Part shown: positions 1 through 64,000 of the stretch, in pieces
Numbering within the stretch: the first letter of the stretch is position 1
How the letters are laid out: each line of letters begins with the position of its first letter
Assembly: GCA_051362555.1 (NCBI GenBank)
Contig: CM120645.1
Span: 13,702,001 to 13,766,000, forward strand
DNA length: 64,000 nucleotides
Source of the DNA: Lingula anatina
Taxonomy: Eukaryota > Animalia > Brachiopoda
Direction of reading: 5' to 3'
Position numbers and translations under genes: made by a program
The notes under the pieces: model-generated
What the model saw: the letters and a program-made list of their open reading frames with translations, nothing else
Databases searched by the model: none
Told to the model about the DNA's origin: nothing

Positions 1-1519
1 AAAAATAACAATAATCATAACAGTGTTTCTCTCCGTACAATCTTTAAATATGAAGTTTAGGGTGTGGCTACTATCACTAACTATACAATAAATCATAACA
101 ATACAATGTACCATATTAAAAAATTAAATATCTGATATGAAAAGCACCTTTAAGTTACCTTTATTTACAAACTTCATAGGACACTCCTCACACTTGTAAT
201 TGCGGATATTTTTATGGCGCTTGCAGGTTTGTTTTCTGTGCGAAGGCTTTCCCACAGCAGTCACACAGGTGATTCTTCTGGTTAATATGGGTGGCTAGGT
301 GACTCTTTAGGCTGCCTGACTGCATGGATGCCTTAGGCACATAGTGTGCTTCTGCATATGAAAAATGTATTACGTAGCTTATCTGCTTTCATATATTTTA
401 GCATAGAGACCCCTTTGCGATTAAGTTTGAAATATTTTAGGCAATATTGCCACTAAATTTAACGTACCCTTCTATATAGTCAATTTGAAAAACAATTCAA
501 TTACTCTCAAACTTTATCTGTCAATAACATCTACTACATCAACTAGGATATCAAAAAACAAGATGTTTCATAGGTTCCAGCAAAAGAGAGAGAGAGAATT
601 ACATAAAGGTCTTCCATCTGCTGTGCGTTTCCTCATGTGTATCTTCAAACTATTTCCCGTCATTGTAAATGGAGCTAACCAGTGCAAGACACACATATAT
701 TAAATTTTTCGTTTTTTAGCGGATATATTTTTTCCTTGATGTTACAAATCTAACTCCTACAAACAAATACATGTATGTTGCCAACAAATATTACAAACGG
801 ATGTTTTCATTCATATCATTTTATATATGTATTTTCCAGCATGAAAAGTAAAATTTCATTATTTTTGCTTTGAGCTTATTGTCCATTATTTATCACAAAG
901 CTAAAGTGTCAGCGATTTTATACAAATTACGAAAGCTTCCAAGCAGTAAATATTTTTATACATGACGCATTTGTAAAAAACACATATTAGTGGTGCCTCA
1001 TGCTATTAATAACTTGTTAATGTAGCGCAAAACACACATCTCACAAACAGCCACGTAAATTTTAAAGAAACAAACGCCCATTTTACCATGTCACCAAAGC
1101 GTTGACCACATTCTTGCAGCTCTGGTGGTGATCAGCTAATTAGTAGCAAATGTTCTCATCTGGTCTTTTCTTTTTCAGATGACAATATACTATTATATAT
1201 TATTTTCATAAAATCGCCTTTTATGTTTGACGATCTGAGATCATACTGTTATATTTCCAACTTCAACAAGTTGCCTCTATGCAATTTATTTCATGAAGCG
1301 GACGTTTCAAATCACTCCCTTATTTGAGCGGCATGTGCCCTACTGTGGAAGAGTCTTCTTCTGTTAGACCCAGTTCTGCAAAGCAGGAAAACCCTCCCTT
1401 CGTCAACTGTTTAACTGAAATAGTGATTATTTTTCTTTTATATAAAAAATGATTAAAAAAGGCATTAAGTGTAGATGTATCTATTTACGGTGGCCCACAA
1501 GTGCACTCCAAATTCCAAA

Positions 1520-1793
1520 CGACACTCCCAATTCTAAACCTCACACCGAATACTTAAACTTCACTCTCAATTCTTAAACCCCACTCCGAATTCGTAAACC
1601 CCACTCCGAATTCGTAAACCTCACTCCAAATTGAAAAAGCTCACTCCGAATTCGCAAACCTCACTCCGAATTCGTAAACCCCACTCCAAATTCGTAAACC
1701 TCACTCCGATTTGAAAAAGCTCACTCCGAATTCGTAAACCTCACTCCGAACTGAAAAAGCTCACTCCGAATTCGTAAACCTCACTCCGAATTC
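1520..1793 (+). repeat. 20-bp tandem array (CTCACTCCGAATTCGTAAAC), left subterminal repeat
   Basis: About 13 adjacent near-identical units with no spacers; an inverted counterpart lies at ~3100-3350. Confidence 0.9.
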
Positions 1794-2509
1794 ATATTTT
1801 AACCCCGTTCACTGCCGTATAAAGTCGGAAGTAATATTCTAAGATGGGCTAGGGGATTTTGCCAATAGAGGGCTTCGTGTGAAAACTAGTTATTTTTCAT
1901 ACAACTTGGTGCGCTGTATTCCCATTCACAAAATGATGACGTAGACGTATGACCCTTTTAAGCTCAAGGTAATAGAAGAAATGAAGAAAATAGGGATAAA
2001 CATACATGTACTTAACAGCAAGTCACAATTAAAATATATTATGTTTACGTGTTTTCTTGTGTGTGTCGTTGTAAGGAATTATACATGTATTATGAATATG
2101 AGAACAGAATTACGAGTTGAAACAGCGTTGGAAGGAACAGATTTATGCACTACATGTATGTAAATAAACGTGCGTTATTTATTATTTACAACTTCAAGCA
2201 TTTTCACATGATTATTTTGAAATGAATGTTTAATACAGATAAAACATGTTTCAGGGTGTCGACATTGGCTTATATTATTTATAAATGGGCAAAACAATCC
2301 GTATTATCATATACTGTAGGCCTACACATGTACCTGTTATATAACCGAGTATACTTGATAATAGTAATTAGTAGCCCCTCACTCTTTTGCAGCTGAAATA
2401 TTCATCTAAGATCATAGATAATCTAATAATTGAAGATCATAGATAATCTAATAATTGAAATTAATCAGATTAATTACACTTTATTAATCGATTTCGAATG
2501 AATAACATG

Positions 2510-2757
2510 CAGTGGTGGATGGGGGGGGGAGGCGTGTGAGGGGGGTCTTGACCCCCCTTTTGAATTCTGTAAAAAAAAAAAAAACACCAATGTTAAAATT
2601 AGAATTTTGAATAATAGTTCTAAAATGTACCAAATAGCACTGTTCGCCCTATAAGGGGGGGGGGGGCAGCTCTGCATGTGCAGCCTGTCATTCCCAAAAA
2701 AAAAAAAAAAAAAAAAAAAAACAGATCCCCCTTCAAATAATCCTGGATCCACCCCTG
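2510..2757. mobile_element. Short MITE (CAGTGGTGGA...GGATCCACCCCTG ends, hAT-like), nested in the 1486-3388 element
   Basis: Imperfect TIRs; an element with similar ends in the opposite orientation lies at 33082-33373. No clear TSD. Confidence 0.5.
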
Positions 2758-3099
2758 ACACGTATGGATTATTAGTAGTATCAATCCTATGTTGAGAAAA
2801 TTGGGAGCAGTGTCACTTAATTTGTCCTTTTATTTATAATGGTAAACCTGTAAATTGCTTCTTGCCCCCAATTTGTGTCCCTGGCGAGAGAGAGTGAATT
2901 GACCTTGTGACGTAAACTGTTGGTTTATTTTCGTAAGGTATGTATCACGCAAACCAAAATGTAACACAATTCGCACTGTTTGCTAAAACTCTCTCGAACC
3001 TTTCACTGGAAGCGCCCAGCTAAAAAAAATTATTTGTCCCAGACGAATTACTGTTTCATAAGATTTCTCGAAGAGAACTTTGATGAGAATTGGCATAGT

Positions 3100-3350
3100 G
3101 GAATTGGGAGTGAGCTTTTTGAATTCGGAGTGAGGTTTACGAATTCGGAGTGAGGTTTGCGAATTCGGAGTGAGTTTCTTTAATTCGGAGTGAGGTTTAT
3201 GAATTCGGAGTGAGGTTTGCGAATTCGGAGTGAGTTTTTTCAATTTGGAGTGAGGTTTACGAATTCGGAGTGAGGTTTGCGAATTCGGAGTGGGGTTTAC
3301 GAATTCGGAGTGAGGTTTACGAATTCGGTGTGAGGTTTAGAATTGGGAGT
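3100..3350 (-). repeat. 20-bp tandem array, right subterminal repeat (inverted relative to 1520-1793)
   Basis: GAATTCGGAGTGAGGTTTAC units. Confidence 0.9.
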
Positions 3351-3853
3351 GTCGTTTGGAATTTGGAGTGCACTTGTGGGCCACCGCATCTATTAGCAAA
3401 TCATACATAAGACCAATTTCGAAACTTCAAATTAAAGTTCAGATTTACTTCCTTGTCATTGTGTCGACTTCAGTTCAGATGTGTACGTGTTTGAATTGTA
3501 AATATATTATAAATAAGAAGTTGGTTGTAAAGTTATCACATCATGTCCAGCTTAAAATACCATTAAGTTAAGAAATGGCTGTGGTGACTATTAAAATAGA
3601 TAAAGAAATGAAGGCATGTGCATACTTAAGTCTTTAAGCTGGGTCTTCAAGGCATTAACTGTAATGTCATTGTCAAGTCCATGCACCAGTACATCTTCCA
3701 TTTCTTTGAATGGCTTTTGGATAGTATCCTGTTAGAAGAGAAACGATGTAATTTCAATTTTGAGAAATTATAAATAAGTGTTCAGGCATACCTACTTATC
3801 ATCTCATAATTAAATTGCAAAAAAAAAAAAAAAAAAAAAAAATGAACACCTAC

Positions 3854-5643
3854 TCTAAAGAATTTCACTATCTCAGCCTTCTCCAAGAAAGCAACAGTGA
3901 GGTCCTGGTGGTTGAGTTTTGCCACGTCCAGTGGGGTGTCGCCATCATCATCTGCCGCCTTGGTGTCCGCCTCAGCTTCCACCAGTAGTTTCACAATTTC
4001 TCTGTTACCTTGCATGCAGGCCAAATGCAGCGGCGTCAGTTTATAAGCATCGCGGACGTCTGTGGCAGCCCCAAGCTCCAGAAGTTTCTCCACCACAGCG
4101 GGGTGTTGTTTTAGAACTGCGTGGTGGAGCGGGGCTAGATCCTCGTGTGCGGAATCTGCAAATGTTACATACGTCTCTTGAATCTTCTTTACAATGTCAT
4201 CGGGGGGTTCTTTTCCCCATCCTGAGTGCAGCACTTTCCCGTAATCTTCCACATCTAAAATTGTAACATTTAGTTTTACCGAGAAGTCAGCAAAAAGCTT
4301 CCTCTTGACCAGAACATAATGCCACGCGGGTCTTTCTCTATCCTTACCCCACACCTTATACACGATAGTCCCTTTGTAGAGATGACCTCGTTAGTCAATC
4401 AGTGTACGCTTTCTTCTCAGAATGGCATTTAAACATTGCACTTGCCCACTCTTTGCTGCCATGTGTGCTAGATTTTCGCCTTTGTTATTTAGGATGGTTG
4501 GATCTGCTCCGCCTTCATCTAACAGACATTCCACAACATCCAAGTTGTCCTTGTTGAGAACTGCGATATGTAAAGCCGTGTCTCCATCGTTGTTCTGAAT
4601 ATTTGGGTCAGCATTATGTTCATTTATCAAACATTTAACCACATCTACATGACCATTTCCAGATGCTACATAGAGAGCTGTGTTTCCGTCCTTGTTCTGA
4701 ATATTTGGGTCAGCATTATGTTCATTTATCAAACACTTCACCACATCTACATGGCCATTTCCAGCTGCTACATAAAGAGCTATGTTCCCGTGCTTGTTCT
4801 CATAATTGACATCGATTCCAACCATTGTTGCTATTTCTTTCACTAACTCGACTTGACCGCCCCATGCGGCACACACCAGGGTATTGCTGGTCACAGGTAA
4901 ACCATGGCGCTGCAGCCTGTTGTATATGTCTCTGTAGTTACCCATCGCTGCGGCATCGAGGCACGTTATGTCTCCCGTATCTGACACCACACTTTTCTTG
5001 ATGTCTATATTCGGTAGATCAGTGAGGTACTCCACCACGTCATCGTACCCCATCCTACAGGCACGACCCAGGGCTGTTTCACCATCATCTGTGACAGCAT
5101 TCAGGTCTGCACCCATTTCGAGAAGCAGCTTCACGCCATCTAGGAATCCTACACCGGCGGCATAGTGCAGCGGGGTAAAATTATCTGAGTCAGTAATATT
5201 TACCAAATTATGGTCACGAGTGCAGAATTCTTTTAACTTATCAATGTTTTGACTCCTTACAACCTTGTGGATTACATTCATTCCACTATCAGTTTTTTTA
5301 AATGAATCAATTCGGTCTGCCACTCTCTCGTTGTGTCTCTTCAAAGCTATCTCTTTTGCAGTACAACCCTCCAGCTCACCAGGGTGAGTGCCACTTGTGA
5401 CCTGAGTGGAAAGTGTCGACAAATCAAAATGTCGAAATATTGTGACAACTGCATTTACGTTATTGTGAAACGCTGCGACATGTAGCACATTAAATCCGTT
5501 GTCATCCCTGTACTCCAGGACTTTGTTTCTGTCCACCTGGCGGGCAGTCCTATCTAGCTCGTACCAAAGCTTAGGCTGTGAGATGAGTGAAGACAGTCGA
5601 CGTAATGGATCATGTGTCACTGAAATATCTTCCGTTTTTTCTG
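3854..5643 (-). CDS. Paralog 1 exon 4: ankyrin repeats plus inserted WHYVLV...SGWG domain (interrupted by TAA at 4391)
   Basis: Repeated TPLH/TALH ankyrin motifs; acceptor TTTCAG at 5644 and donor GTAGGT at 3853. Confidence 0.85.
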
Positions 5644-6050
5644 CTGAAATGAAGGTACACAAACGGTTTAATGCCATACTTTTTTGTCTTCTATAATAAG
5701 GATACTAACATTTATGTACATTTTATGAATTTATTTGTCTTTTTTTCTTGATAAAATCATCACCATCTTGATATTATTAACTTTTGAATGGTCTGTGATA
5801 CAATATTTAAATATTTAAATTAAATATTCAATATTCGCATATCAACATCATATTCATAATGCAGTATGAGAAAAAAAAAGAAAATATATTTGAACATAGA
5901 TATTTTGGTTGAAATTCCTTTCACTTCTAGATAAAACGAAGCAGAATTTGGATGAGTAGAACTGACATCACTTTTTTACTTAATCCAAAAATGAAAATCC
6001 ATTCTCCTACATAAAGCATTATATAACGTGTATAGAATACACCTGAGGAG

Positions 6051-6092
<42 letters not shown>

Positions 6093-6169
6093 TGCGGGTG
6101 TCATTTCTCCACTGTTGGAAAGAGAGGGGGCGGATTCCTGTATCCGTCCATGAATGTGACAACTCTTAC

Positions 6170-6313
6170 CTTGCACCGACATGCCAACCTGTGCATCTTC
6201 TACATCCCCTGTATAATCTGCCTGAAGAAACCTGTTGCTGTCTCCTATTTGGATGTTTTGGCTTTGTTTGACGCTGATCGTCTGTATATGTGGGCTAGTC
6301 AGTTTACTTGGCA
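6170..6313 (-). CDS. Paralog 1 exon 3: RHIM-motif exon (TISVKQSQNIQIGDSNRFL)
   Basis: 144-nt phase 1-1 exon conserved in all four copies; IQIG core. Confidence 0.8.
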
Positions 6314-6483
6314 CTGTAATAGAGCATTAACTTAGTTTGACATGTGAAATTAAACTTGGTCAAGTCTAATTGGATTGGCCAATGTTTAGGCTTTGTCTTG
6401 GGAGTAAACAGCTTCATTAAAGAGATCATAACTTAAAGTAAATGTTAACGTTTCAGACCGTTTGTTCTTTTGTTTTATTGTAC

Positions 6484-6833
6484 CTTCTTCCGGAGCCCAT
6501 GATTCTTGTCTTGTCAGATTCAGGATCATCAGCTCTAAAACATCTCTTTTCTTAGCTATGCCATGAAGAACGTCTTCTTTGGTTATCCTAGCTCCTTCCC
6601 TTTCCAGAACAACAGAGAGCTGGTCATCTTGTCCAAAATCTAACAGGGAGAAGCAGATTACATACAAAAATTAAATGGAGCGTTCCCCTATCCTTTCGAC
6701 ACATTAAAAAGAATGCAAGTACATCTGTGTAGGCAATCTACATGTTGTAATCTTCAATGGTTTCTGGAAAGTTTTGGCTCATTGTAATGCAGGTTTTCAA
6801 GATCACGCACACAAGCACACAGACACACACTCA

Positions 6834-6873
<40 letters not shown>

Positions 6874-7103
6874 CACACACACACACACTTTTTATGCGTC
6901 GTCTATTTACATGATTGATTTTATTGTTTATTGTTTAACAGAAAGTCGTATGTTTAAAAAAGGTTCAACAAGAACACCTAATGGAAAAGACTGTACTAAC
7001 CAAAGAGTTTCCTGGCGTCGTGTAGAAGCGTCTCCATTGTTGTTAGCATGCATGTTTCCCTCTTCTGACGGTCACATGAGTAGATGATACAGGGGGTGCC
7101 CAT
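6484..7103 (-). CDS. Paralog 1 exons 1-2 (7103-7001, 6639-6484): CIDE-N-like domain
   Basis: Spliced MGTPCIIYSCDRQKRETCMLTTMETLLHDARKLFDFGQDDQLSVVLEREGARITKEDVLHGIAKKRDVLELMILNLTRQESWAP follows the CIDE-N pattern (P..i...DR..r......l.eLl.ka...l.....lvLeeDGt.V..Ee.f..L.....lmvL..gqsW.P). Confidence 0.7.
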
Positions 7104-10746: not shown

Positions 10747-10802
10747 TGAAGGCTCAGGTATGACCATAGTCTACCGGTAAACAGTCCATCCTACAGGCCA
10801 GC

Positions 10803-15614: not shown

Positions 15615-15652
15615 CTTTAACCGTCTTTAATGTTTAAAAGACTGGGGGGGCA

Positions 15653-24053: not shown

Positions 24054-25674
24054 ATGAGTGAGCATACCTCTCAACTGACATGCATTGGTGGGTCAAACCT
24101 ACAACCTGGAAACAAAACCTGCTGACCTGTATACCAACATATCACATAAAGGGTGTGTCAACTGAAAGCCCGGGCCAGTAATAAGTGCACGAGTTCTGTA
24201 TGCAGAAACACACAGAAAACCACTTGTTCATGCATAAAACAAACTATGGCCAATAAAATAATGTTTATACTGACAAAGGATGATGAAAACTGTTCTCTCC
24301 ACGCCGTCTGACTCTGATTTTAGAGTCAAATTGACTCCATGAGAGCCAGGGGGTGATTGACTCTGATAAGAGAGTCTAAAGACTCTGGTAGTGGGGTAAT
24401 TTGACCCTTATATAGGAGTCAAATTAACTCCATGAGGGTCAAGGGGAGCTGGACTCTGACTAGAGAGTCAAATGACTCCAATTTTATTCTCAGTGATTAG
24501 AACCCTTACACTGCAAAATAATGATTCCAGTATCTTCAGTTCACTCCTTTTCGTCTGTTCCATTGGCAACAGCTTCTTTAGCAAAACGATTGGAAGAATC
24601 TTCTTTTGGATTCAGTTTTGCCAAGCAGGAGAACCCAACCGTCGTCAACTGTTGAACTGAAAAAGTTTTTAAACATTTCTTGGGTAGTTGAATATGACAA
24701 ATGCGTTATATATACACGAGTCTGTAGATAAACCACACATAAATTCAATATTGACATTACAATTAATTCCCTTTCATTTCGCCCAAAAACATTCAAAATT
24801 ACTGCAGTATACACATTTTATGTTTAAATAAAAAGATGATAGATGAACATCTTCCTATCCTGTTAGGTATAAGAATATTAGGACAGATGTGCACGTATAA
24901 ATAATTGTCTATCTAATTAAATAAACAGATGGTCGAATTTAGTGCATTCCATTGAGGTTCCACTAGCCAATAAGTTATATATTTTTTGGCTAATGGCTAA
25001 TCGCAAAATAAAAGAACAAAGTTGCATACTTATATCGTGAAGATGGGTCTTCAAAACATCTGCTGTGACGTCAGTGTCAAGACCATGTTCTAGTAAACCC
25101 ATAATTTCTTTGAAAGGTTGTTGAATGCTATCCTGTAAGGAGACCACAATGTGCATAAAGTTTTGAAAAAATACAGACATAACTTTCGGCATTCCTCCTC
25201 AGGATCTTCTAATTTGCTGACATTTTTGATCTGGTATAAGTGAAGCTAACGGAGGCGGTCATGAAAAAAAAAACATTGCATTTAAGATATTACAGAACAG
25301 AACTGTATCCTTATTGATAAATAAGAAATCTTAAGAGATATCTTACTTGTCTATCCTATACTGTTAATCACAAGCCTAAACGTTTATCATGGTACTTTAA
25401 CAATTACAACGTGACCGTGTGTATAATGTTGCTTTCTTTTAACATAGTTTTTAAACGTATATCAGAGTGCTGCCTAAAGTGACAAGCTTCAGTTGATATA
25501 TTTAATATTGTGTGGATAAGAACATCACCAAATTTCAGTTACTTTTAAAAATCTTAAACAGTATCAGTAGAATTGAGAAAAAAAAAGAAAATGTCAGAGT
25601 GAAATATAAATTTAGTGCATTATTGCTACCGACAATTATAGGTTATCTCTTATTAGCTTTAATTTTCAACTTAC

Positions 25675-27886: not shown

Positions 27887-28250
27887 CTGAAATGAAGGAA
27901 TGTTTTTTTGTGCTATAAAATCAGATATTTGACACAAACAGCATTATGTCATGCTTCTTGTCTACTAAAGAAACTAACATGTGCATAACAGGCCTAAAGT
28001 CACTGTACGTAGTTCACTGACATTTAACTGCGCATCGCTAATCCAACTACGGACCTAATGGAATGGAATGTCTCTGTTAAATCAAGGATATTAAGAAGGA
28101 AGATTTTGGTTCACTCTGTGTACATTGTTTGGCTATCAACGTTACTGTGGATCAGAGAGTGTGTCATCTTTCCCTTGTTGGAAAGAGACCGAGAAGATTC
28201 CTTTATCCGTCCATGAGTGACTATCAGACATTTTGTGACAATATTCTTAC

Positions 28251-28394
28251 CTTGCGCCGGAATAACGACCTGAAAATCATCTTCATCCCTCGTATTATCT
28301 GCCTGAAGGAAGCGGTTGCTGTCTCCTATTTGGATGTTTTGACTATGGTTGATGCTTATCATCTGAATATTTGGGCTTGTTAGTTTACTTGGCA
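28251..28394 (-). CDS. Paralog 2 exon 3: RHIM exon (MISINHSQNIQIGDSNRFL)
   Basis: 144 nt, phase 1-1, CAG acceptor and GTAAGA donor. Confidence 0.8.
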
Positions 28395-44584: not shown

Positions 44585-44638
<54 letters not shown>

Positions 44639-44679
44639 CAGGGAACGGTGAATTTGTCTATCAAACGAGTTCGTGGTCA

Positions 44680-46220: not shown

Positions 46221-46251
<31 letters not shown>

Positions 46252-48750: not shown

Positions 48751-48784
<34 letters not shown>

Positions 48785-49298: not shown

Positions 49299-52200
49299 TC
49301 ATTCCTCTTCGTCTGTTTTCTTGGTGTTTGTTTCCTTTTCAAAATGTTTGGAAGAATCATCGTCTGGATTTAGTTTCGCCAAACAAGAGAAGCCTCCCGT
49401 CATCAACCGCTGGACTGAAATAAACAGTTCAAAAAGAAAAATGCATAAGATATAAACGACCCTCTAGATAGACCAAGGATAAAAACTTAATTTTGACACT
49501 ACACTCATTCTTTCATTGTGCCGGGAAAAAAATAAAAACTATTGTTGTATACACATTGCATGTTTAAATACATTAATGTTGATAAGTTCCGTCCTTAAGT
49601 GTATTCTGTTAACTTTAATGTAAATGCAGATGTGCGTATCAAGCCTATTTTATTAAATACATATGGTTGGTCGAATATAGTTTTTTTTTTTTTACTGTGT
49701 GGTTTCACTAGCCGATAGATTACATATACATGTATGTTATGGAGAATGACTCATCGCCAAAGAAAATATCAAAACTGCATACTTATTTCGTGAAGCTTGG
49801 TCTTCAAATCATCCACTGTGACGTCAGGTTCAAGACCATGTTCTAGTAAATCCATAATTTCTTTGACAGGTTGTTGAATGCTATCCTGTAAGAAGACCAC
49901 AATGTGCATTAAATTTTGATAAAAAAACTATAAGCATCACTTTAGGTATTCCTCCTCAAGATCTTCTAACTTGTTGACATTTTTCTCTAGAATATGCGAA
50001 GTTAACGGAGGGAGACATGCAAAAAAGTATTGTATTTAAGATATCACTGAACAAGACAGTATCCTTATTCCGTTAATAAATTAGATTGTTACGATCCCAT
50101 CCTATACCGTTTATCACAAAGTCAAACGTTTATCATTGTACTTCAAACAGTTGACTGTGTGTATGCTACCGTTTTCTTTTCACATAACTTTCAGACATGT
50201 CAGAGTACGGTCTGAAGTGACAGGCTTCAATGTAGTTGGATTCAGTAAACCTTTGAGCCCTACGGCTCATCACAATGGAATACAGTGAGAATATAATATT
50301 ATTAATATGATTAATATTGTGTGGATAAAAGATTCACCAAGCTTTTAGTTTCTTAGAGAATTTTTAAAATATCTTAAACAGTATCAACTATATAATTTAA
50401 AAAATGTCACTGTAACATAAAGATTTTGAATCTAAGAGTAAATGATAAATTTAGTGCATTATTACAATCGACAATTATTGGCTTTAGTGTCTACTTACCT
50501 TAACGAATTTCACTATCACAGCCTTTTCCATAAAAGCAACAGTGAGATCCTGGTGGTTGAGTTTGGCCACGTCCAGTGGGGTGTCGCCATCGTCGTCCGC
50601 CGCCTTAGTGTCCGCCCCTGCTTCCACCAGTAGTTTCACAACTTCTCTGTTACCGCGCATACAGGCCAAGTGTAGCGGCGTCAGTTTGTACGCATCACGG
50701 ACGTCTGTCGCAGCTCCAAGCTCCAGAAGTTTCTCCACCACAGCGGGGTGTTGTTCTAGAACGGCGTGGTGGAGCGGGGTTAGATCCTCTGGTGCGGAGT
50801 CTTTACATTTATCATACTTGTCAGTTATCTTCTTAACAATGTCATCGGGGGGATCTTTTCCCCATCCTGAGTGCAGCACCTTTCCGTAATCTGCCACATC
50901 TAAACTTCCTCCATTTGTTTTCACTAAGAAGTCCGCAAGAAGCTTCCTCTTCACCAGAACATAATGCCACGCGGGTCTTTCTCCATCCTTACCGCGCACT
51001 AAATAGACAAAATGCCTGCAGTGATTACTTTGTTTGTTCATCAATCCAGGATGTGTTCTCAGAATGGCATCCAAACACTGCACTTGTCCACTGCCTGCTG
51101 CCAAGTGGGTTGCATTATTGCCTCCGTTGTTTAGAACAGCTGGATCCGCCTTATGTTCATTTAGCAAATACTTTACCACATCAACATGACCATTTCTAGA
51201 CGCTTCACACAGAGCGGTGTTCCCGTATTTGTCTTGAATATTTGGATCAATCCTACGTTCATGATTCCTTCTTAGAACGGCATCCAAACATTGTACTTTT
51301 CCACTACTTGCGGCACAGTGGGCTGGATTTTGTCCATCATTATTTTGAATGGTAGGATCTGCACCACCTTCATTTAACAGACATTCCACGACGTCCAGGC
51401 CGACATTATTGAAAACTGCAATATGTAGAGCAGTGTTTCCGTTTTTGTTCTGAATACTTGGGTCCGCCTTATGTTTATTTATCAAACACTTTACCACATC
51501 AACATGGCCATTTCTTGATGCTTTGCACAGAGCGGTGTTCCCGTACTTGTCTTGAATATTTGGATCAATCCTATGTTCATGATTCCTTCTTAGAACGGCA
51601 TCCAAATATTGTACTTGTCCACAACGTGCGGCACAGTGTACTGGGTTTTCTCCATCATTATTTACGATGGTTGGATCTGCTCCGCCTTCATCTAACAGAC
51701 ATTCCACGACGTCCAGGCCTGCATTACTGAGAACTGCAATGTGTAGAGCAGTGTTTCCGTTTTTGTTCTGAATACTGGAGTCCGCCTTATGTTTATTTAT
51801 CAAACGCTTTACCACATCAACATGACCATTTCTTGATGCTTCACACAGAGCGGTGTTCCCGTACTTGTCTTGAATATTTGGATCAATCTTACGTCCGTGA
51901 TTCTTTCGCAGAATGGCATCCAAATAATGCGCTTGTCCACTACTTGCGGCACAGTGGGCTGGATTTTGTCCATCATTATTTTGAATGGTTGGATCTGCCT
52001 CACCTTCATCTAACAGACATTCCACGACATCCAGGCCGACATTATTGAGAACTGCAATATGAAGAGCAGTGTTTCCGTTTTTGTTCTGAATATTGGGGTC
52101 CGCCTTATGTTCATTTATCAAACACATAACCACACCTACATGACCATTTCTAGATGCTTCATACAGAACTGTGTTCCCGTACTTGTTCTGATAATTGACA

Positions 52201-55200
52201 TCGATTCCGTCCATTGCAGCTATTTCTTTCACTAACTCGACGTGACGGCCCCATGCGGCACACACCAGGGTATTGCTGGTCACAGATAAACCATGGCGCT
52301 GCAGCCTGTTGTATATGTCTCTGAAGTTACCCATCGCTGCAGCATCGAGGCACGTTATGTCTCCCATAATTGAATTCACACTTTTCTTGATGTCGATGTT
52401 CGGTAGATCAGTAAGGTACTGCACCACGTCATCGTACCCCATCCGACAGGCACGACCCAGGGCTGTTTCTCCAGACTTTGTGACAGCATTCAGGTCTGCA
52501 CCCATTTTGAGAAGCAGCTTCACACCATCAAGGAATCCTACACCGGCAGCATAGTGCAGTGGGGTAAAATTATTTGAGTCAGTAATATTTACCAAATTAT
52601 GGTCACGAGTGCAGAGTTTTTTTAGCTCATCCATTCTCTTATTTCTTATGACCTTGTGAATTGGTTTCGTTTCACTCTCAAGTTTTCCTGCTAAATCAAT
52701 TCGGTCTGCCACACTCTTGTGATGTTTCTTTAAAGCTATCTCTTTGGCAGTACAACCATCCAGCTCACCAGGGTGAGTGCCGCTTGTGACCTGCGTGGAA
52801 AGTTTCGCCCAATCAAAATGTCTGAATATTGTCAGAACTGCATGTTCGTTATTGTGAAACGCTGCAGCGTGTAGAACATTGAATCCATTATCATCCCTGT
52901 ACTTAAGGACTTCGCTTCTGTCCACCTGGCGTGCAGTCCTATCTAGCTCGTACCAAAGCTTAGGCTGTGAGATAAGTGCATGCAGGCGGCGTAACAGATC
53001 AGCTATCACTGAAATATCTTCCGTTTTTTCTCCTGAAATGAAGGGATGTTTTTTATCTTTAAATTAAAACAAACTGTCTTCTTTGTAATAAACACAAACA
53101 TTTGACACACGCCGTCTTATCTCATACTTTTTGCTCCCATATTAAGGGCACCACATATAAATCCTTTTTCGAATACGTTTGTCATTTTCTTTGGTACATG
53201 AAGAGCCTCAGGGATTTGCAGTTGATAAAATCATCATCTCAATATTATTAACTTCTGAAGAGGTATGTGATACAACGTTAATGTCAATATACAATGTTAG
53301 CAGGTCAACATCAACTTCATAATACAGTATGGGCTTATCCATAAAAAATATGAACATGTACATATACATTTTGATTGAAATGCCTTTCATCTGAAGATTA
53401 AGCTAAACAGAATTTGGATTAGCAGCACTGACATTACTTTTCTACTTAATCCCAAAAATTAAAATCCATTCTCCTACATGTACATAAAGTATTAAATTAC
53501 GTTTATTGTATAAACTAAGACTATGTTAACCAATGTATTTCGGAAAAGATTTTAGTGATGTTTTGAGGTATTACATGTACGTGTTTTGTCGACACATTTT
53601 CTACACATTTTCTGCTAAATCTCCATGCACGTTCAGCTTGTTTTTGAGATTTAAATAAGTTTACTTCTACTGTTGCGGATAAAATTTAAAAGTCACTCGC
53701 TTTAACTAGAGTGACCGAAAGTACAGATCTTAAAGAATTGCTTTAAATCTAAAGATTGTAATTTTGTCAACGATTCTTGTATTGTGATTGGCGGGGGTTG
53801 GGGCGTGAGAATATATAAAAACCTATTTTGATACATTGTTAGGTCATTGTGTTATATAAAAATAACACCTTTTCATTGCCCCGTGTATTGCCTGGTTTGG
53901 AATGCAACTCGATATATTTCTACAATTTATGTAACTTACTGGCATACAGCACTTGCGGTAGCGTCACTACAGCAAATATTTGTTATTATGAACCATATTA
54001 ATCAAAATTGTCTTGGTATAGAATATTAATATTAAGACGGAAGAATTCAAATGTGGATTTTGTGCATTGTTTAGCAAAAATTGGTGTCTACAAATTTACA
54101 ATAGAATTTACATGTATATATTTCTCTCCTTGATCCGGCGCGCCCCTTAGCAAAATGAAAAGTTTGCAGCAAACTTGCAAAAAATTTGCAGCAAATTTGC
54201 TGCAAACCAAATAGTTTGCAAGAAACTGTTTGCAGGTTGTTGCAAGAAAAATCACAGTTGTTGCAAATTTGCTGCAAATTTGTAGGAAGATTAAAAGTTT
54301 GCAGGTTGTTGCAAGAAAAATCACAGTTGTTGCAAATTTGCTGCAAATTTGTAGGAAGATTAAAAGTTTGCAGGTAGTTCGCAAGAAAACTATCATTTTC
54401 TAGCGAATTCGCAGCAAATTTGCAAGAAAGCTTCTATTTTCTTGCAAATTTGCAGAAAATTTGCAAGAAGACCCTCATTTACATAAAAGTTTGCTGGAAG
54501 TTTGCAAGAAAGACTATACACTGTTGCAAATTTGCAGCAAATTTGCAAGAAACTGCTCATTTACATAAAAGCCTGAAGAAAGTTTGCAAGGATAAATATA
54601 CCCTGTTGCAAATTTGCAGAAAATTTGCAAGAAAACCTTCATTTACATAACATTTTGCAGAAAGTTTGCAAGAAAGATCAACATTGTTGCAAATGCAGTA
54701 AATTTGCAATAAACTCCTCATTTACATAAATGTTTGCAAGAAACTCAGCTTTTATACACACCAAGTTAATTCATTTGCAAGAAATTGCAAAAAATTGTTT
54801 CATGTTTGCAGCAAATTTGCAAATTTTTTTTCATATAAAAGTTTGCCTGAGTTTTGCAAGAAAGTCCATACCTTTTTTTACTAACATACAGTTAAATAAA
54901 TGATGTTTGCACTGAGCATGGGTGTCAGAAAGTGCCATTTTCAAGCCAAAATATTAGTATTGAGTTTAAAAAAAGAAAAAAAAGACCAAGTTAACTAACA
55001 GCTTATGAGATTTTTGCACGAAACTAAGAAATTTATAAACTTTAGTTTATGAGAAGTCTGAAGACACCTGAAGACACTTAGACATTTGTTAATAGTTTGG
55101 GAGAAGTTTGCAAGATGACATTTACTTAGTTTGCATAAAATTTGCGAGATACTCAGCAGTCTACTTACAGTTTGCAATAAGTTTGCAAGAAACTTGGACA

Positions 55201-57075
55201 TAAACTTACAATTCACAAGAAGTTTGCAAGAAACTTAAACAATTACTTACAGTTTGCGAAAAGTTTGCAAGAAACTTAGTCAATTACTTACAGTTCGCCA
55301 TAAGTTTGCAAGAAACTTAGACATCAACTTACAGTTCACAAGAAGTTTGCAAGAAACTTAGACAATTACTTACAGTTCGCGATAACTTTGCAAGAAACTT
55401 AGACAATTACTTACAGTTCGCGACAAGTTTGCAAGAAACTTAGACATTTACTTACAGTTTGCGATAACTTTGCAAGAAACTTAGACATTTACTTACAGTT
55501 CGCGATAACTTTGCAAGAAACTTACACAATTACTTACAGTTCGCGATAAGTTTGCAAGAAACTTAGAAATTAACCTACAGTTCACAAGTTTGCAAAAAAA
55601 AAAAAAAGGGCTATTTGCTTACAGTTTGCAAAAAACTTATAAAAATAGAAATTAACTTTTTTTTTTTAAATAATCAAGATATAGGCATTTGAAAACTTCT
55701 TTTCCATTCTCGAATCCATCCTTACTCAAACTAACAAAATTGTACTAAAAAAAACAAACAAACAATTCATGTACAGTTATGGATTTTGCCCACTTTTTGG
55801 CCAAATTTATTTATTTACATAACCCCACATAAAAAAAAAAAAAATAGTTCCAAAGGCTTATATAAATGATTATTTATTCATTATAACATTTGTACTTGAT
55901 TTAATTTAAGTTCTTATGTATTATTATCAAATTAATACTTTGATTTACTGCTTATAAAACCGAGATACCAGGATGATGTTAAGATTTCATAGGGTTTTCG
56001 TGATTTAGGCAGATTTGGAGCAATACTGAATTATGATGTAACCCACCAACTATCAATGAACATAAAAATCAACACTACAGGGGATGACATTCCTGAGAAG
56101 TACTTCTTAAAAACAAATAAACTCTTTAGCCCAGGGTGAGTTTGCAAACCCTGATTGTATACTGATGAGCATGTGAAGATCACTTAATTGACTCCCAGTA
56201 ATTGCATGGGCAGACCACGGCATACAGAAAAATGAGCAAAATACTAAGGTGCACTGTCAAGTTATGATCAGGGTAAATTGGTTTGTCACATGGGTCATCA
56301 CAGGTATCTCCATCGAATCATCATCACTGTAACTATAATCACCATCACAATGGACTTCATTACTCAACTCTTCGCTATAAGAGAAGTTAGGACCACAGTT
56401 TTCTTTGCCATTGTCATTTTCACAAACTTCTTTTAGTTGTGTTATTGTGTCAGATATGTCACATATAGCTGTTGCTTTAATATTCTGTACATCCAACTCT
56501 TTGGCATTCTCAGGATAAGGTCTTTATCTTTTGGGTCTCACTCTACCAAGTTGGTCAGCCATCTTGTCTAAAATAAATAAGAAAAAAAGAATTATGAAAA
56601 ATATTTGTCACAATAAGCCTAGATTGATCAAATTTATTATAACAGGTCTCATGATTAAAAAAAGATGTACATTTTCAGTCCCCATTTACTATAGATTACT
56701 AAGTAGCATTGTATTCAAAGCAGAAAGATTCTCATTTCATTATATAGCACCTACATAAACAAACTGATTTCTATCTAAGCAAAGAACAGTGGTCCTTCAA
56801 TTGAAATGCATACTAGTAAGGGTGGAACTTCAAATTCAGTGCCCTTGACACATCTGGTCTTTCAAATTTTCATGGATAATTACAGTGCAGCAGAATGGCT
56901 CTTTGGTTCTTTTATGGAAACTACACACCTGAGAGATAATTAACTAAGAAGACCAACATATTACACACTGATTCTTATCTGAGAGGTCTTTCAATTCAAT
57001 TTGTTAAATCTCTAAGCCCTGTGGTTCATCAGAATGAAACAATGAAAGAATTAAATGCAAATTATTAAAACTTAA

Positions 57076-57112
<37 letters not shown>

Positions 57113-60100
57113 AGCAAACCCATGCTTATTAAGTTCAGTTGCATATATTCCTTTTTTCAATTATTTGTCCTTCTTGAAAAGTAATCATTATACTTGGATC
57201 CTCGGTTTTCAGCTTACATAACTAGTGGAGTATGAATAAAGTTTTATTTACAGTTATTTGTGCATTGATTATTTAATTTTCCTCGACTTTAACACCCCCC
57301 CCTCCCCAATCCGACATTCTTAATAGTAAAAATGTATTTCTGCTTAAGCATGCTGTGGAATGGACATTTAAGAATAAAACCCTAGATGTCACTCAAATCA
57401 TGTAATTCACAGGCTCTTAAACTCTAATTAGTGCCTGAATACCTTTAAATTTCTTCTGCTAGTTTGTACATTGATAGTCTTCATATAGCAATACATGTAT
57501 ATATTCCTTATGTCTGTGTTATTGGCTTGTTCGAATAGAATTGCACTGTAAAATTATCAAGTAAATGTTGATAATCCTCAATGCTAGAAAATTATTTTTT
57601 CCTTGGCACTTGTTATTATTTTCTGAATCTTTTCTTGTAGTTTTTTTTTTTTCACTTTTGACCTAATAACCTTCAAATTTTTGCAATGTATTAAACTTAT
57701 TTTTTAAGAGACACCTGCCAGATTCCCCCACCATCCCCCCCATTCAAGTCTCTGACATGCTCATCTTGCAAGATGCTGAGAGAAAGGATGAAACCTGTTC
57801 ACACCTGACTGTTAATAACTGATCTGTATCTAGGTAAAGATCATGGACCTTAAAATTCCTACTTGCTAATTAGAGAAGCATTTAACAACAAACAAGTATC
57901 TATCCCTTAAGGTACATACTGTCTTTCAACAAGCTTAGCTGAACAATTCCACTTCTAAGAGTATTTACAGGTCATCAAAGCTTAATGTGACTACAACTCA
58001 ATTTTAAATTCTATATTATCTGACAGATATTTCAGGACTACCTAAGCTATTTAGCTTCACTGGATTATAAATGGATTCAGATAAAAGCATTTCACTTCCT
58101 GACAAATAACCCAAATGACTGTGGAAGGGGTCCTAATAATGGAAAATTGCATTTTGTTATGCATATACCTAGAGACATCAAAATTTTATCAATTTTAGGA
58201 TGCATAAATGGTAAATTTTTGCCACAAAAGCTCACCAATTGCCAGTAAAATTTTAAATAGTACTAAGGTACTGTAATTACCACAAGACATCATTTAATAC
58301 TGCTCGAAAAATGATATTTGAACAATATTTTCTGCTAGCTTGCTATGCCGATATAATCCAGGCAGATAAGTAAGATATGTACTTGTATGTTAAATTTTCA
58401 GCCAAAATTTAAAATAAGGAGCAGTTAAAAGCTCCTTTATGCTGATCAAGTGATTTTTCCTTGTCATGTATAATAAATTATTCTAGTTGTATAACAAACT
58501 AGTAGAAGTAGTTAATAAGCATTTACTGGGAATCCATGTTTCACCACACTCAGTTCAAAATGTACCTTTAACTATGGTAATATACACAGAAACCTACAGC
58601 TAATTTTATCAGATTTTGTTAAACTAGAATAAACTAAATAGGTAATAACAGTAGACAAGGGTAATATTTTATACACAGTTAAGTATCAAACTGTCATTTC
58701 TTAAGAAACACTAAAGGGAATCCTCCTTCCAAAGTCTTAGTTGACACTCACTCTTATAAAGGTGACAATTTTCAATTGGCCGACAACTATCTGAAATGCT
58801 CAGCCCACAAGATGTGCTGCTAGCAAGGAAGAGCCCTATTCACACCTGACTGTTAATTACTATAGCACTGATCTGTATCAAAGATTCGGGGACTATTGTA
58901 AAGCTAGGAGGACAAGCAAGTCCCCATCTCCTAAGACTCAAACTGTCTCTTAATAAGCTTTCCTAAACAATTCCACTTTGAAGAATACAGCACATCAGAG
59001 CCTAATCTAACTGTACCTCAAAAATTTAATGTAACCTGACATATAAGTACATTTGGGCTATTTAACTTCACTGGATTGTTATAGACTTGATTTAAAATGT
59101 CATCATTATTTGACACAAGCTAAAATGTAAGCAGAAAAGATGCTTTTAATGTAAAAATGCATTTTATATTGACATTGAATGGCATTTATCAGTTTTAAGA
59201 CATTAAAATTATTTAACTTTTATCAATGTCAATTCATAAAAAATACACAAACCAAATGGTCCTTTTAATAAAACAATGTAAAGATAATATAAATCTGATG
59301 GTAACTTAGGAATGGAAAGAAAAAAAGTAATATTTACTAACACTCACGATTTAAACAATGTATCAAACTGTTTCGTGCTTTTTTTTTTCTGAAGAGACAC
59401 CTGAGAGACCTCCTACATTCAAGTCTCTGTTGACACCCACTCAAATATTGAGATGATAATTTTCAATCATCTGATAACTATCTTGCTAGATAAGCTGCTA
59501 CGTACCTTTCACTGCATGGTTTGCTAGTGTTGCTGGGATTCATCTTCCGCGAAATAAAGACACGCGCAGCCTTGACGACTTTTCAACAATTCCACCCCAG
59601 TAAACATTAGTTGATCTGGATGCAGGAGCAGATCTGTAGTGGTGTTGGCAGAATCTACCTTTTCTAATCGATAGATCAAATTCTTGGTCACGGGGGAGCT
59701 CTCATGAACAGCGATTATCTGACAACCGGAAATGGTCATGAAAACGATTAATCGTGATAGGTTGATGCGCGATCTGATGCATCACGGGAAATTTTGAAGA
59801 AGAAGGCGGTTTGAGATTTACCGGCAGCTGATTTTAAGTTGGTGTAACCAGTTAGAAATTATGATGCGTTGATTGCAAAGCCAGGTGAGTGCAAATATTA
59901 ATCAGAACGTTTGATTCAAGATAGGATTTTACTACACTCAGAGAATTCTCATCATGCCTGCGAGTAGAAGGTAGAAAGTAAACCGATTCTAAATACAGTT
60001 CTAGTATGGGGGCGCTAGTATGGTACTTGTTGGGAAGGCCATCTCGTTCTCTCTCTCTCTTTCTTTCTCTTCTTATTTTCCTCCCTCTCTCTCTCTCTCT

Positions 60101-60161
60101 CTCTCTTCTTTTTTTCCGCTCTCTCTCTCTTCTTTTTTCCTCTCTCTCTCTCTCTCTCTTC

Positions 60162-60204
<43 letters not shown>

Positions 60205-63200
60205 CTGTGGAATAAGTGTGTAACTATATTCTTTTTAAATTATAGAGACGTGGATTACTATTGGTTTTGACAAGGATGGAGTTGTATCAGTGGAAGACGT
60301 TTCGAAGTTTGAGAGGGAGGAAGAGTAAGAAGGGGAAGTCCCTACTGTTGGAGAGACACTCATGGCTCATTGGGATGGTTGCATGTATTTGGCAAAAGTG
60401 ATTTTCATTTAGTGGTAAGTGTATTCTCAATTAGTATAGCATGCTTAGGTGAAATAAATTCAAAGGGCAGAAGGGTTCATACAGCACTTAAGGTACATAT
60501 TAACAGAGCATCGCTGTAACATGATGGATTTCCAGTAACACATATAAACTACTTCTTCAAATTTCCTAATTACTCAAATAAATTTAACATGATAAGGGGT
60601 AAACTGAATAAGTCACCAGATTGGTCATTAAAGAGCTTTAGACTGCGCCTTTCTTTAAATTTTTGGCCAGAAATTTAGCCTATTTTTATGACCTATTATT
60701 ATTATTATTATTTTTATTTATTATTATAATTTTTTTTTGCCCATTGATATACAGCATAGAGTGCTAGAAGAAAAATCTGTTCAAATATTTTTTTTCTTTT
60801 TTTCTTTTTTTTTTTTTTTGGGGGGGGGGGTTAATTAAACTATGCCTTTTGGTAATCCTCTAAGTTATACTACTTGAAACTATATGCTGGCATTTTGTTG
60901 GCTTATGTGCATGGCCAAAATTTACTTCATATGCACCTTTAAACTTAGCCCCTTGAAATTACTTTTAATCTTGAAAAAAAAAAAAAAAAACTTGCACATT
61001 CAATCATATCTGCCACAGGAAAAATTTATAGTTTTAATAGTCTTGATGGTTTTAAAAGTCAGTTTTGGTCATTTCCACAGAAAGGAGAAATATCAAAGTG
61101 CAAATACATGTGTTTTAAAAGAATGCTTTGAAAGCTATTCTCCTTTTATTTTAGATTACAGAAATGCATGTCAGAAGGAAAAGAAGGCATATGTGAAAGG
61201 TGAGTAAATGTATTTTCAGTGAGTGTCAAAGACTTCTGAACAAATCTAAGAATTTAAGTGTATCACCCTCATACTGACTTACCTCTTCTTTGTGAAACTA
61301 ATATGTCTGATAATTCCATAATTATTGTTGGGGTTTTTTTTAAATAGTAACACAGAATCCAAAATGTTTCAGTGTTGCCTTGCTTCTGAATAACAGGAAC
61401 CCCACTTTTTGTTTTAGTTCAAACAACCATGCAACCTATGATGAACTGTTCATATATATAAATATATATTCTTAATGCATCACTTTTTTGGTAGAATAAC
61501 ATTTTATGTTTTAATGTTTTTAGATAAAAAGGACAACCAGAGCAATGGTAGTAGTGTAAGTATATTGTTAATTGACCTGCAATTGCTGTTGCATATCTTT
61601 TCGACTAAATGGTGAAAAAATTGTAATTTCCTCTTTCAAATAATAATTACATTTTACACACTTAAATTCAAATTTAATAAAGCTTTCCCTATGTTATTCA
61701 AGGAAAAAATCAGAGCCAGCTTGTAATGCAGCAGTTGAAGAAAGTGTTTCAGTGCCTCGTGCATCATCTGTTCCCCGTCTTACTCCCACCATCTCCAACT
61801 CTGTGCCCTCTATATATCTCCCCACACCCTTACCATCTCCAACCCTGTGCCCTCCATATCTCCCCACACCCATACCATATCCAACCCTGTGCCCTCTATA
61901 TCTCCCCACGCATACCCTGTGCCCTCCATATCCATCCCCCCCATCTGTCTCATTTAGTTTTTTAAATGAAGTCGTGCTTTCTTTATTTATTGTTTAAATT
62001 CTCTTTCTTTCAGTGTATGTTATTAACAACCTGAAAATGGATGGGCCAGCAATTAAGCACACTATGAGTGCAAAAATTCACACTGCAAAGAGGGCCTTAA
62101 AAAAGGTAGGAAAAGTATTTTTAACTGTGATTAGATTATACCATGCCTGCTAAATTTATTTTTGTTTTACTTAACAACATAAATCATATATATGTATATA
62201 TATATATATATAGGTGTATTTATTAAGGGAATATACTAGAAGCTTACTTGACAAACTACCTGTGAGTGCAACAAATTTTACAAGAAATGTCAAGTTTTAT
62301 TTTTCTTGTCTTTCAGATGTGATATGGTGCTTGTATCCCAGTCGAAATTTGGTCTGACTTCTCTAGCGGGTGAAACAACAGGGGTGATATGTTTTCCAGA
62401 GATCAACTACAACCTGCCTGATCTCTACGTTTATTTCTCTGGCTGACAGATTTGGAGTCTCCTAGGACAGCAGGGACTATCTAGCTATCGGTTCAACTGA
62501 TCAAACTTACTCTGAGCTCTTATACGAAGTTCTACTCCTTATATACTTATACACACAAAATACATTACAGTGAATCATTAACAGGATTGAGATATTGAAG
62601 CCAGTTAACAGAATTAAGACATCTTACTAAGGACTCGATAATTAAACTCGGACTTCTTTAAACTTGGATGTAAATAAAGTTGTTGAACCCTCTTAAAAAT
62701 TAAAGCATCCTTTATAGCTTGGTTACTGTTCTTTCCAATGAATAAAATGCATAAGCAGATTCACGTTGTATCATTATATCAGAGACATCTGAACAATCTT
62801 TACCAAATGTTGATTTAATTTGATTTAAATGTGCAAGTTTCTAAAATAAAATATTGAAAAATGTTTATGGTGTTTCTTACTGATATTCTGTGTGTGCTAT
62901 TTTTTCATTCATTTGATAATTTTTCTGTATGTGTTCTGCCAGCTGTACTAAATGGCTAAAATACAGTAATAAAATTTTGCTACTCCATGATTTCAAATAT
63001 GGCATACATGATTTAATTAAAAAAAAGAACTGGCATAAATAAAAGCATAATCACTGGGTTAAATATTAGTTGTCAGTCTACTGCAATAGTGGTACTGCAG
63101 AAGAATGTTTTTTCGATTTTTTTTTTTTTTTTTGGGGGGGAGGGGGGTTCCGGAAAAATTCGCGAGAACAGTTCTGGAGAGTTTGCAGCAAATTTGCAAG

Positions 63201-64000
63201 AAGGATTTCTTAAGAGTTTGCAGAGCGTTCGCAAGAACAGTTCTGGAGGGTTTGCAGCAAATTTGCAAGATCTTCTAGTGAATTTGCAGAAAATTCGCAA
63301 GAACAGTTCTGGAGAGTTTGCAGCAAATTCGCAAGAACTGTAGTGGAGAGTTTGCAGCAAATTCGCATGAATGGTTCTTGAGAGTTTGCAGCAAATTTGC
63401 AAGAAACCTGTGACAGATTCCCTTTTGTCATGCTGATTAAGTTTGTGGGGAGTTTGCAGCAAATTTGCAAGAGACTTAATTTACATGGTAAATTTCCTCT
63501 TGCAAATTTGTTGCAAATTTGCAGCAACTGTTTGCAAGAAGCCTTAAATTTTGCTAAGGGGCGCGCCCGCCCCTTAATGTGGTAGTACTTACCTTGGACT
63601 GACACAACATCCAGCATTTCATCCACATCCCTCGCGATCGTATAATCTCTCTGAAGAAGACTGTTGCTGTCTCCTATTTGGATGTTGTGGCTTTGGTTGA
63701 TGCTAATTGTCTGTATGTTTGGATTAGTAAGTTTGCTTGGCACTGGAAAAACCAGGTCATAATAAATTAATCATTCAACAGCATATCCATTCTTATTTGA
63801 AATAGATTCATGTTTGTCCTGCTGCACTGAATTGGACGGCACTCAATTTTCATATAAAAAACACCTCTCTGTCATTTGCCTACCTTCCACCGGTCCCCAT
63901 GATTCTTGTCGGGTCTGATTCACAACCACAAGCTCTAAAACATCATTGGTTTTCTGTCCTAAGGCAAGTAGAATTTCTTCATCTTCTATTTCTGCTCCTT
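49299..64000 (-). CDS. Paralog 4: CIDE-N-like/RHIM/ankyrin-repeat gene, 5' part beyond the window
   Basis: Exons >64000-63884 (exon 2, partial), 63742-63593, 53032-50499, 49885-49783, 49414-49299. All visible exons are open; intron 3 is enlarged by a 9.4-kb insertion. Confidence 0.85.
50499..53032 (-). CDS. Paralog 4 exon 4: ankyrin repeats plus inserted domain
   Basis: 2534 nt, the same length as paralog 3 exon 4; ORF 50484..53009. Confidence 0.9.
55150..55600 (+). repeat. ~41-bp minisatellite inside the 9.4-kb element
   Basis: Units AGTTTGCAAGAAACTTAGACAATTACTTACAGTTCGCGATA. Confidence 0.85.
60047..60200. repeat. CT-rich polypyrimidine microsatellite
   Basis: Interrupted (CT)n. Confidence 0.9.
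63593..63742 (-). CDS. Paralog 4 exon 3: RHIM exon (TISINQSHNIQIGDSNSLL)
   Basis: 150 nt, near-identical to paralog 3 exon 3. Confidence 0.82.

Follow-up and report, generated by a model that had tools for sequence, protein, structure and literature searches.

A tandem gene family of Lingula anatina that joins a CIDE-N domain, a RHIM-type motif and an interrupted ankyrin array: a candidate innate-immune sensor or adaptor

We know of the CIDE-N domain only from the DFF, CIDE and Drep proteins, namely DFF40/CAD, DFF45/ICAD, CIDEA/B/C and Drosophila Drep1-4. RHIMs, for their part, occur in RIPK1, RIPK3, ZBP1 and TRIF, in the RHIM proteins of Branchiostoma and in PGRP-LC, Imd and Pirk of Drosophila. 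Here we analyze a stretch of 64,000 nucleotides from the brachiopod Lingula anatina (GCA_051362555.1, contig CM120645.1, positions 13,702,001 to 13,766,000; hereafter the window, at its full length), whose minus strand, upon comparison of the window with itself, was found to hold four paralogous tandem units with a likeness to both of those groups: to the former in an N-terminal CIDE-N recognizable in Pfam, with a PDB profile and from its predicted structure, and to the latter in a tetrad within a linker that is predicted to be disordered and that connects a sensor-like region with a further interaction domain. The Lingula family nevertheless differs from the CIDE-N proteins in having no nuclease, DFF-C or CIDE-C, the place of which is taken by a RHIM-type motif and ankyrins, and in keeping the filament interface only in part; and it differs from the RHIM proteins in having no kinase, death, TIR, Zalpha or NACHT domain and no Pfam RHIM match.

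Lineage-specific shuffling of this kind has precedents in the amphioxus RHIM proteins (Kajava 2014) and in the marine-invertebrate proteins with TRADD-N/death domains and ankyrins, which are likewise an expanded and shuffled combination of adaptor and repeats with a proposed immune role (Kaur 2021), and in which DED or TRADD-N stands where the Lingula proteins have CIDE-N and the RHIM-type motif. The words "CIDE" and "ankyrin" are absent from the main text of Kajava 2014, whose figure lay outside our scope, while the main text of Kaur 2021 does not mention the RHIM and refers to CIDE only as a nuclease. We found no published CIDE-N+RHIM or CIDE-N+ankyrin protein like the present one within a scope that excluded the figures and supplements of those two papers and the Gerdol 2018 survey of Lingula immunity. 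The architecture and the inserted domain described below seem undescribed, shuffled RHIM/death adaptors of marine invertebrates being already known.

All four copies, which we designate A to D, follow a six-exon plan with GT-AG introns throughout and intron phases of 1, 1, 1, 0 and 1 (Table 1). The splicing of copy C yields a product of 1053 aa with zero internal stops (36017-42223, minus strand); this model, which had been deduced in an earlier reading of the letters alone (the original prediction), is now corroborated by an independent RefSeq-type Lingula model, P0002, that has the same joins and is identical to it at all but two of the first 137 residues. Splice sites and phases are common to copies A to D, in agreement with the earlier statement that the small upstream exons splice in frame in all of them. 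The tandem cluster of four genes then announced does consist of four copies on the minus strand, but only copy C is complete and intact in the window. Copy D leaves the window inside exon 2, exon 1 lying beyond the edge, and is otherwise open; copy B is frameshifted by a 7-nt deletion at 27720/27721; and the reading frame of copy A meets a TAA at codon 552 (4391-4393), just ahead of the inserted domain. Since RefSeq P0006, which protein is 98.5% identical to copy A, reads through at that position, the stop of copy A may reflect allelic variation or a difference between assemblies. Of 342 candidates, six proteins matched a query made of residues 1-150 of exon 4; five of these are named Lingula anatina RefSeq "ankyrin-like" proteins and the sixth is P0002; the RefSeq paralogues number at least eight, on three scaffolds, with full-exon models of 637-982 aa. 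The RefSeq label "ankyrin-1-like" reflects the repeats only, in that the family shares a long ankyrin array with the true ankyrins but has neither ZU5 nor death domain among its Pfam matches. An extra exon candidate at about 36650-36700 was ruled out, as its phase and a stop conflicted with the model and it is absent from copy A and the RefSeq models. Intron stretches alike between copies and resembling vestigial exons were seen at 40223-40528, 5748-6047, ~36650-36700, 49940-50050 and 25183-25272. A RefSeq Lingula protein of 115 aa, P0007 (XP_023933147.1), comprises only the CIDE-N and a cut RHIM and may stem from the splitting of a gene model or be a short form; the length of its scaffold equals that of the scaffold bearing the copy A-like P0006.

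The identity of the N-terminal block was examined by three routes. In Pfam, PF02017 matched P0002 with 23.5 bits, the cut-off being 23.5, and P0007 with 28.8, while P0004 (20.1), P0003 (17.9) and P0001 (16.3) remained below that value. A profile built from four N-termini retrieved from the PDB CIDE-3 with an E of 2.8e-7 and DREP2 with an E of 4.5e-5. The structure search made with the Atlas model placed CIDE-N domains in the top four of ten rows (template-modelling score, TM, 0.72-0.77); other ubiquitin-like families (PB1, KHA and the TDP-43 N-terminus) scored close in the feature search. The strands and helices predicted by AlphaFold follow the order of the ubiquitin-like alpha/beta roll of CIDE-N, at a local confidence score (pLDDT) of only 36-68; single exons searched alone matched neither CIDE-N nor RHIM. 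Because the Pfam, PDB-profile and structure matches agree, the CIDE-N domain is real in this family, as the original prediction had it. Polymerization through that domain would be less sure than its identity. In FSP27 the filament interface opposes R46, R55 and K56 to E87, D88 and E93 (PMC7156525); at those positions—mapped via the PDB-profile alignment, with the numbering inferred from residue match—copy C has I, K and K, and G, K and E, respectively. The CIDE-N sequence of the copy C type is bipolar, with a charge of +4 followed by one of -9.

The RHIM core tetrad is given as V/I-Q-V/I/L/C-G (PMC12119088, PMC13506858). Exon 3 encodes IQIG in all four window copies, and IQIG or IQVG in three of the five RefSeq paralogues that have this exon. 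The tetrad occurs nine times when all six frames of the window are read, six occurrences being expected, or with a probability by chance of about 0.002 per 50-codon exon; a longer RHIM pattern matches the four copies only, with 0.01 matches expected in the window, which pattern was drafted from known RHIMs after the sequence had been seen, so that the four copies count as one event. Residues 84-143, moreover, have an AlphaFold pLDDT below 50, a score that a shallow alignment could also depress, and a disordered location is typical of RHIMs (Kajava 2014). The ratio of nonsynonymous to synonymous substitutions (dN/dS) was 0.26 over the 22-codon RHIM segment versus 0.43 in the rest of exon 3, both from small numbers; the segment is under purifying selection. 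We think it rather probable that exon 3 carries a working RHIM, with amyloid formation putative. The claim previously made for this block accordingly stands as regards the published tetrad and the disordered linker, but what it has behind it is a motif with no profile match.

The ankyrin array has grown by a 318-bp three-repeat unit and differs in length among the paralogues. Its binding-face codons, picked by DARPin numbering, are more variable than those of the framework, with proportions of nonsynonymous differences (pN) of 0.13-0.21 versus 0.02-0.11. Proteins of the fungal NLR/HET-s type (NWD2) and animal NLRs resemble the Lingula family in the combination of an N-terminal amyloid motif with C-terminal variable repeats, and the layout postulated earlier under the heading of an NLR/HET-s logic is to that extent present; but the nucleoside-triphosphatase (NTPase) switch is missing, and, having no STAND/NACHT NTPase and no diversifying selection seen, the family differs from both. 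It is not an NLR, because of that missing NTPase.

The long ankyrin array of the original prediction is confirmed by the repeats, but in all four copies it is interrupted by a segment of 61 aa that had been overlooked. The model of this insert is confident (pLDDT 85.7) and has the order beta-beta-alpha-beta-alpha; fold searches with it gave no match (best Z 3.9), by which result a new fold is not proven, and the sequence was unmatched in Pfam, NCBIfam, PDB sequences, plasmids, phages and viral contigs. Relatives numbered 467 among 480 candidates. The matches listed (120 of the 467) include other Lingula ankyrin proteins, ankyrin clusters with Porites and Pocillopora records, and small bacterial proteins of Xenohaliotis (73% identity) and Wolbachia (56-58%); the domain is also present in proteins of Oculina and Ptychodera, and a marine Rickettsiales protein is 74% identical to it. 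Among genomes, 188 of 301 from Rickettsiales contain the domain, while the six that matched out of 401 from Pseudomonadota are all Rickettsiales; a Chloroflexales match (L005) was discarded as spurious. In the closest bacteria the gene lies head-to-head with miaA, a miaA motif adjoining it at 11 of the 15 best bacterial loci (IPP transferase confirmed in 3/3). In Wolbachia, WD0822 is miaA (PMC13719037 supplement), and its neighbor by number, WD0821, is a hypothetical protein described as a signature of the Anaplasmataceae (PMC2241609; Gupta and Mok 2007). In view of that identity of WD0822 and the head-to-head order, the insert is probably the C-terminal domain of WD0821, which assignment proceeds from gene order and not from direct sequence comparison. 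The Lingula domain thus resembles the C-terminal domain of small Wolbachia/Xenohaliotis proteins but lies inside an animal ankyrin array, whereas WD0821 was reported only in Anaplasmataceae (PMC2241609).

The 64 metagenome loci with the insert comprise 27 of the ankyrin type, 8 caspase-like, 4 beside miaA and 25 others, the last including stand-alone 80-aa genes and TIR_2, TPR-like and VirD4-like fusions on high-GC contigs. In the caspase-like fusions, His-Gly and Asp-Cys motifs, presumably akin to those of caspases, are 41 residues apart in five of ten proteins, with the His replaced by Asn in two and cut off in three; the part concerned had no Pfam or PDB profile match. Elsewhere the insert is fused to kinase-TPR, or to weak TRADD-N-like and MIB_HERC2 regions. 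In a tree of 69 rows (thinned from 151 distinct domains, over 72 columns, most of the Rickettsiales row labels being inferred) the ankyrin-type copies of animals fall together with two rows of Rickettsiales type (97/88), and a transfer of the domain from bacteria would be plausible on that sequence evidence. Among the Lingula paralogues the insert changes faster than the flanking repeats, with a pN of 0.16 versus 0.04-0.07. The family with a caspase-like part followed by the insert includes P0085, P0096, P0099, P0117 and P0119 and the loci L060, L061, L064 and L068; the bacterial-type fusions are L052:13-882 (TIR_2), L062:85-960 (TPR-like) and L069:7985-10213 (VirD4/TraD-like). Stand-alone versions of 80-84 aa (L034, L063, L066 and L090) lie only a few bases behind a gene of the same orientation, in the manner of a partner or immunity gene.

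For the splicing of the exons we mapped to the copy C region the RNA reads of four runs filed under the same species label (X3, X7, X8 and X9). The reads fill the exons and leave the introns empty, with nil depth over 40070-41197. The exon 1-2 join (41673|42121) was spanned at the exact bases by four reads from two of the four runs (X7 three, X9 one, X8 and X3 none) and the exon 2-3 join (41371|41515), again at the exact bases, by six reads from two runs (X7 five, X8 one, X9 and X3 none). For exons 3-4 there were two paralogue reads in X8 with 37 other letters between, plus a three-read loose end in X7, and for exons 5-6 four reads of X7 in which 5 other letters intervene; the exon 4-5 join is absent among the read rows listed. 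Only 16 of 159 reads are at least 95% alike, so that most must come from paralogues or alleles; splicing is thereby demonstrated for the family, not the expression of copy C. The proposed joining of exons 1-3 to the ankyrin exon is in consequence exact for the first two joins but weaker for the third, and comes from mostly paralogous reads. In X9, four reads join another upstream exon straight to exon 4 at position 40019, possibly from an isoform without exon 3, and hence without the RHIM, or from a paralogue. Intron 4 of copy C contains a highly transcribed repeat (37023-37357) like a miniature inverted-repeat transposable element.

Outside Lingula the combination was not encountered. The N-terminal profile, run against 1.84 billion representatives, gave 13 matches: two from Lingula, seven plain CIDE-N proteins without ankyrins, and four (P0008, P0009, P0016 and P0018) that were dropped as repeat noise. 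Among 182 proteins compared, 159 have the insert, and only four, all from Lingula, also have the CIDE-N and the RHIM pattern; neither of the latter was present in any of the 64 metagenome loci, whose contigs are short. With such contigs, and with many database proteins being single-exon calls, exons located upstream in other animals could have gone unnoticed. Within the searches made, the CIDE-N + RHIM + ankyrin combination is found only in Lingula, one species so far; no paper or protein from elsewhere contradicted the earlier opinion that no characterised protein has this architecture. The simplest history is that of an old ankyrin-insert-ankyrin core to which the phase-1 CIDE-N and RHIM exons were added in the brachiopod line.

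We tentatively propose—giving the proposal somewhat less than an even chance—that this Lingula-specific, exon-shuffled tandem family would be a cytosolic innate-immune sensor or adaptor signalling via a RIPK1-like kinase. The ankyrin array and the insert would bind either a protein of microbial or damaged-self origin or a partner with the same domain; the binding would cluster the proteins, with the assistance of charge-based CIDE-N contacts; and the clustered RHIMs in the disordered linker might then seed amyloid with the Lingula RIPK1-like kinase, the outcome being most likely the induction of NF-kB-type defence genes and possibly the death of the infected cell. A Lingula protein, XP_013410819.1, is listed as RIPK1 with the RHIM conserved, and the activation of NF-kB by mussel RIPK1 requires the RHIM (PMC12119088). 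An immune role is plausible because of that RIPK1-like RHIM and of the company that the insert keeps elsewhere (TIR, caspase-like and TRADD-N-like). NF-kB would be a more likely output than the CAD nuclease, since the former has the published mollusc RIPK1 support and nothing found here ties the protein to CAD; the link from RHIM amyloid to a CAD-type nuclease, as originally suggested, is the less likely of the two, and there is no nuclease in the window.

Several results weigh against our proposal. Two of the four copies (A and B) are broken in this assembly, and the expression of the family was low in the RNA runs. Two of the five RefSeq paralogues with exon 3 have FQIG. The RHIM segment matched no Pfam, NCBIfam or PDB profile at E values up to 10, and a RHIM profile run against the PDB returned two rows, both unrelated; the filters of HMMER discard weak short matches. 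RHIM profiles are, in addition, low in power (Kajava 2014). The FSP27 interface charges are kept at three of six positions in copy C, two of six in A and B and one of six in P0007, some being reversed, so that of the two polymerising modules claimed both domain calls hold but half of these charges are lost, with differences among the paralogues. Pfam matched no NACHT/NB-ARC NTPase in exon 4 or in P0001-P0004. The binding-face pN, taken over 30 repeats of the four copies, was lower than the proportion of synonymous differences, pS, and there is thus no sign of diversifying selection; the array described as a variable repeat sensor varies in repeat number and binding face, but without an excess of amino-acid change. 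The models of a sister Lingula subfamily and of all the coral homologues seen, furthermore, lack both the CIDE-N and the RHIM, and the ankyrin-insert core can therefore work without them.

Under an alternative that we regard as unlikely, the proteins would be generic ankyrin scaffolds or ubiquitin-pathway adaptors, with the CIDE-N serving for docking as a degenerate ubiquitin-like domain and the IQIG lying in a non-amyloid linker. The missing RHIM profile match, the eroded CIDE interface and the closeness of PB1, KHA and TDP-43 N in the feature search would all fit such a role, as would a coral relative with MIB_HERC2 and ZZ, which pair we take to be typical of Mind-bomb ligases; but the tetrad is kept across paralogues with a dN lower than that of its flank, the insert is fused to TIR and caspase-like parts, and Lingula owns a RHIM kinase. 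Rather less probable is the version of the original prediction, in which the CIDE-N would co-assemble with Lingula CAD/ICAD and RHIM amyloid would trigger DNA fragmentation. Against the pairing of CIDE domains by complementary charge, the increase in nuclease activity in DFF40 filaments (PMC7156525) and the bipolarity of the copy C-type CIDE-N (+4, -9) must be set the half-lost and variable interface residues, the absence of a nuclease from the window, and the circumstance that a Lingula CAD or ICAD is not established, no paper on one having been found.

A slightly smaller likelihood is accorded to a decoy or brake that would soak up RHIM or CIDE-N partners in the manner of Drosophila Pirk, ICAD and the viral RHIM decoys. 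Such decoys are on record (Kajava 2014, PMC13506858); the family has interaction modules and no catalytic domain, P0007 is a 115-aa form with the CIDE-N and a partial RHIM, and the stop of copy A would truncate its product, but tandem expansion and a variable repeat number would suit recognition better. The least probable alternatives assign the central part to the insert. In one, this would be the working part, a captured bacterial domain serving as an integrated decoy or homotypic adaptor that senses intracellular bacteria of the Rickettsiales type or links ankyrin sensors with caspase-like effectors: its 74% identity to the marine Rickettsiales protein, its presence in 188/301 Rickettsiales genomes with no non-Rickettsiales among the 6/401 Pseudomonadota matches, the grouping in the tree (97/88) and its faster evolution than the flanking repeats all argue for this, whereas the tree has 72 columns and largely inferred Rickettsiales labels, unrelated high-GC bacteria have the domain too, and the bacterial protein is not known to be secreted. 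In the other, to which we would give the same slender chance, an innate-immune receptor with a Rickettsiales-captured domain would, upon sensing such bacteria, nucleate RHIM amyloid with the RIPK1-like kinase and a CIDE-N/CAD filament at once, the insert being a new signalling module shared across kingdoms and employed with TIR and caspase-like effectors as well; if true, RHIM signalling would be wired directly to DNA destruction.

With regard to the immune sensor or adaptor that we prefer, the presence of a CIDE-N beside a RHIM-type motif in a repeat-bearing adaptor suggests that two polymer-based death/immune modules can be coupled in one chain, and the family becomes a candidate upstream partner for the lophotrochozoan RIPK1-like kinase, RHIM-bearing PGRPs not having been found in lophotrochozoans according to PMC9835746. 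The insert, which matched neither a family nor a fold, is a conserved small domain that Wolbachia-like bacteria have in common with corals, a hemichordate and a brachiopod; through it one can test what an Anaplasmataceae signature protein that has long gone unexplained does.

Table 1. Positions within the window of the exons and inserted domains of the four gene copies.
Feature	Coordinates	Strand	Description
Copy C exon 1	42121..42223	-	First 34 residues of CIDE-N, basic half
Copy C exon 2	41515..41673	-	Remainder of CIDE-N, acidic half
Copy C exon 3	41222..41371	-	Symmetric phase 1-1; RHIM-type motif IQIG in predicted disordered linker
Copy C exon 4	37489..40022	-	Ankyrin array, repeated 106-aa (318-bp) three-repeat unit
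Copy C 61-aa inserted domain	37816..37998	-	WHY...GWG motif; likely WD0821-family C-terminal domain
Copy C exon 5	36497..36596	-	C-terminal region, helical by prediction
Copy C exon 6	36017..36132	-	Includes stop codon
Copy A	1320..7103	-	Exons 7103-7001, 6639-6484, 6313-6170, 5643-3854, 3728-3626, 1414-1320; insert 4181-4363
Copy B	24541..29108	-	Exons 29108-29006, 28720-28565, 28394-28251, 27886-25675, 25132-25030, 24656-24541; insert 26002-26184
Copy D	49299..64000	-	Exon 2 partial (to 63884), exons 63742-63593, 53032-50499, 49885-49783, 49414-49299; insert 50826-51008

Three further elements lie in the window. Intron 3 of copy D contains a 9.4-kb element (54137-63567) that has terminal inverted repeats, apparently with a 3-bp target duplication, and in which no long coding frame was seen. 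Between copies A and B, on the plus strand at 10354-16045, there is a young and apparently intact Gypsy-type long terminal repeat (LTR) retrotransposon, whose LTRs (10354-10746 and 15653-16045) are 99.7% identical and whose gag-pol frame has 1614 codons. The start of the window, at about 130-330 on the minus strand, bears what we judged by eye to be a C2H2 zinc-finger-like remnant.

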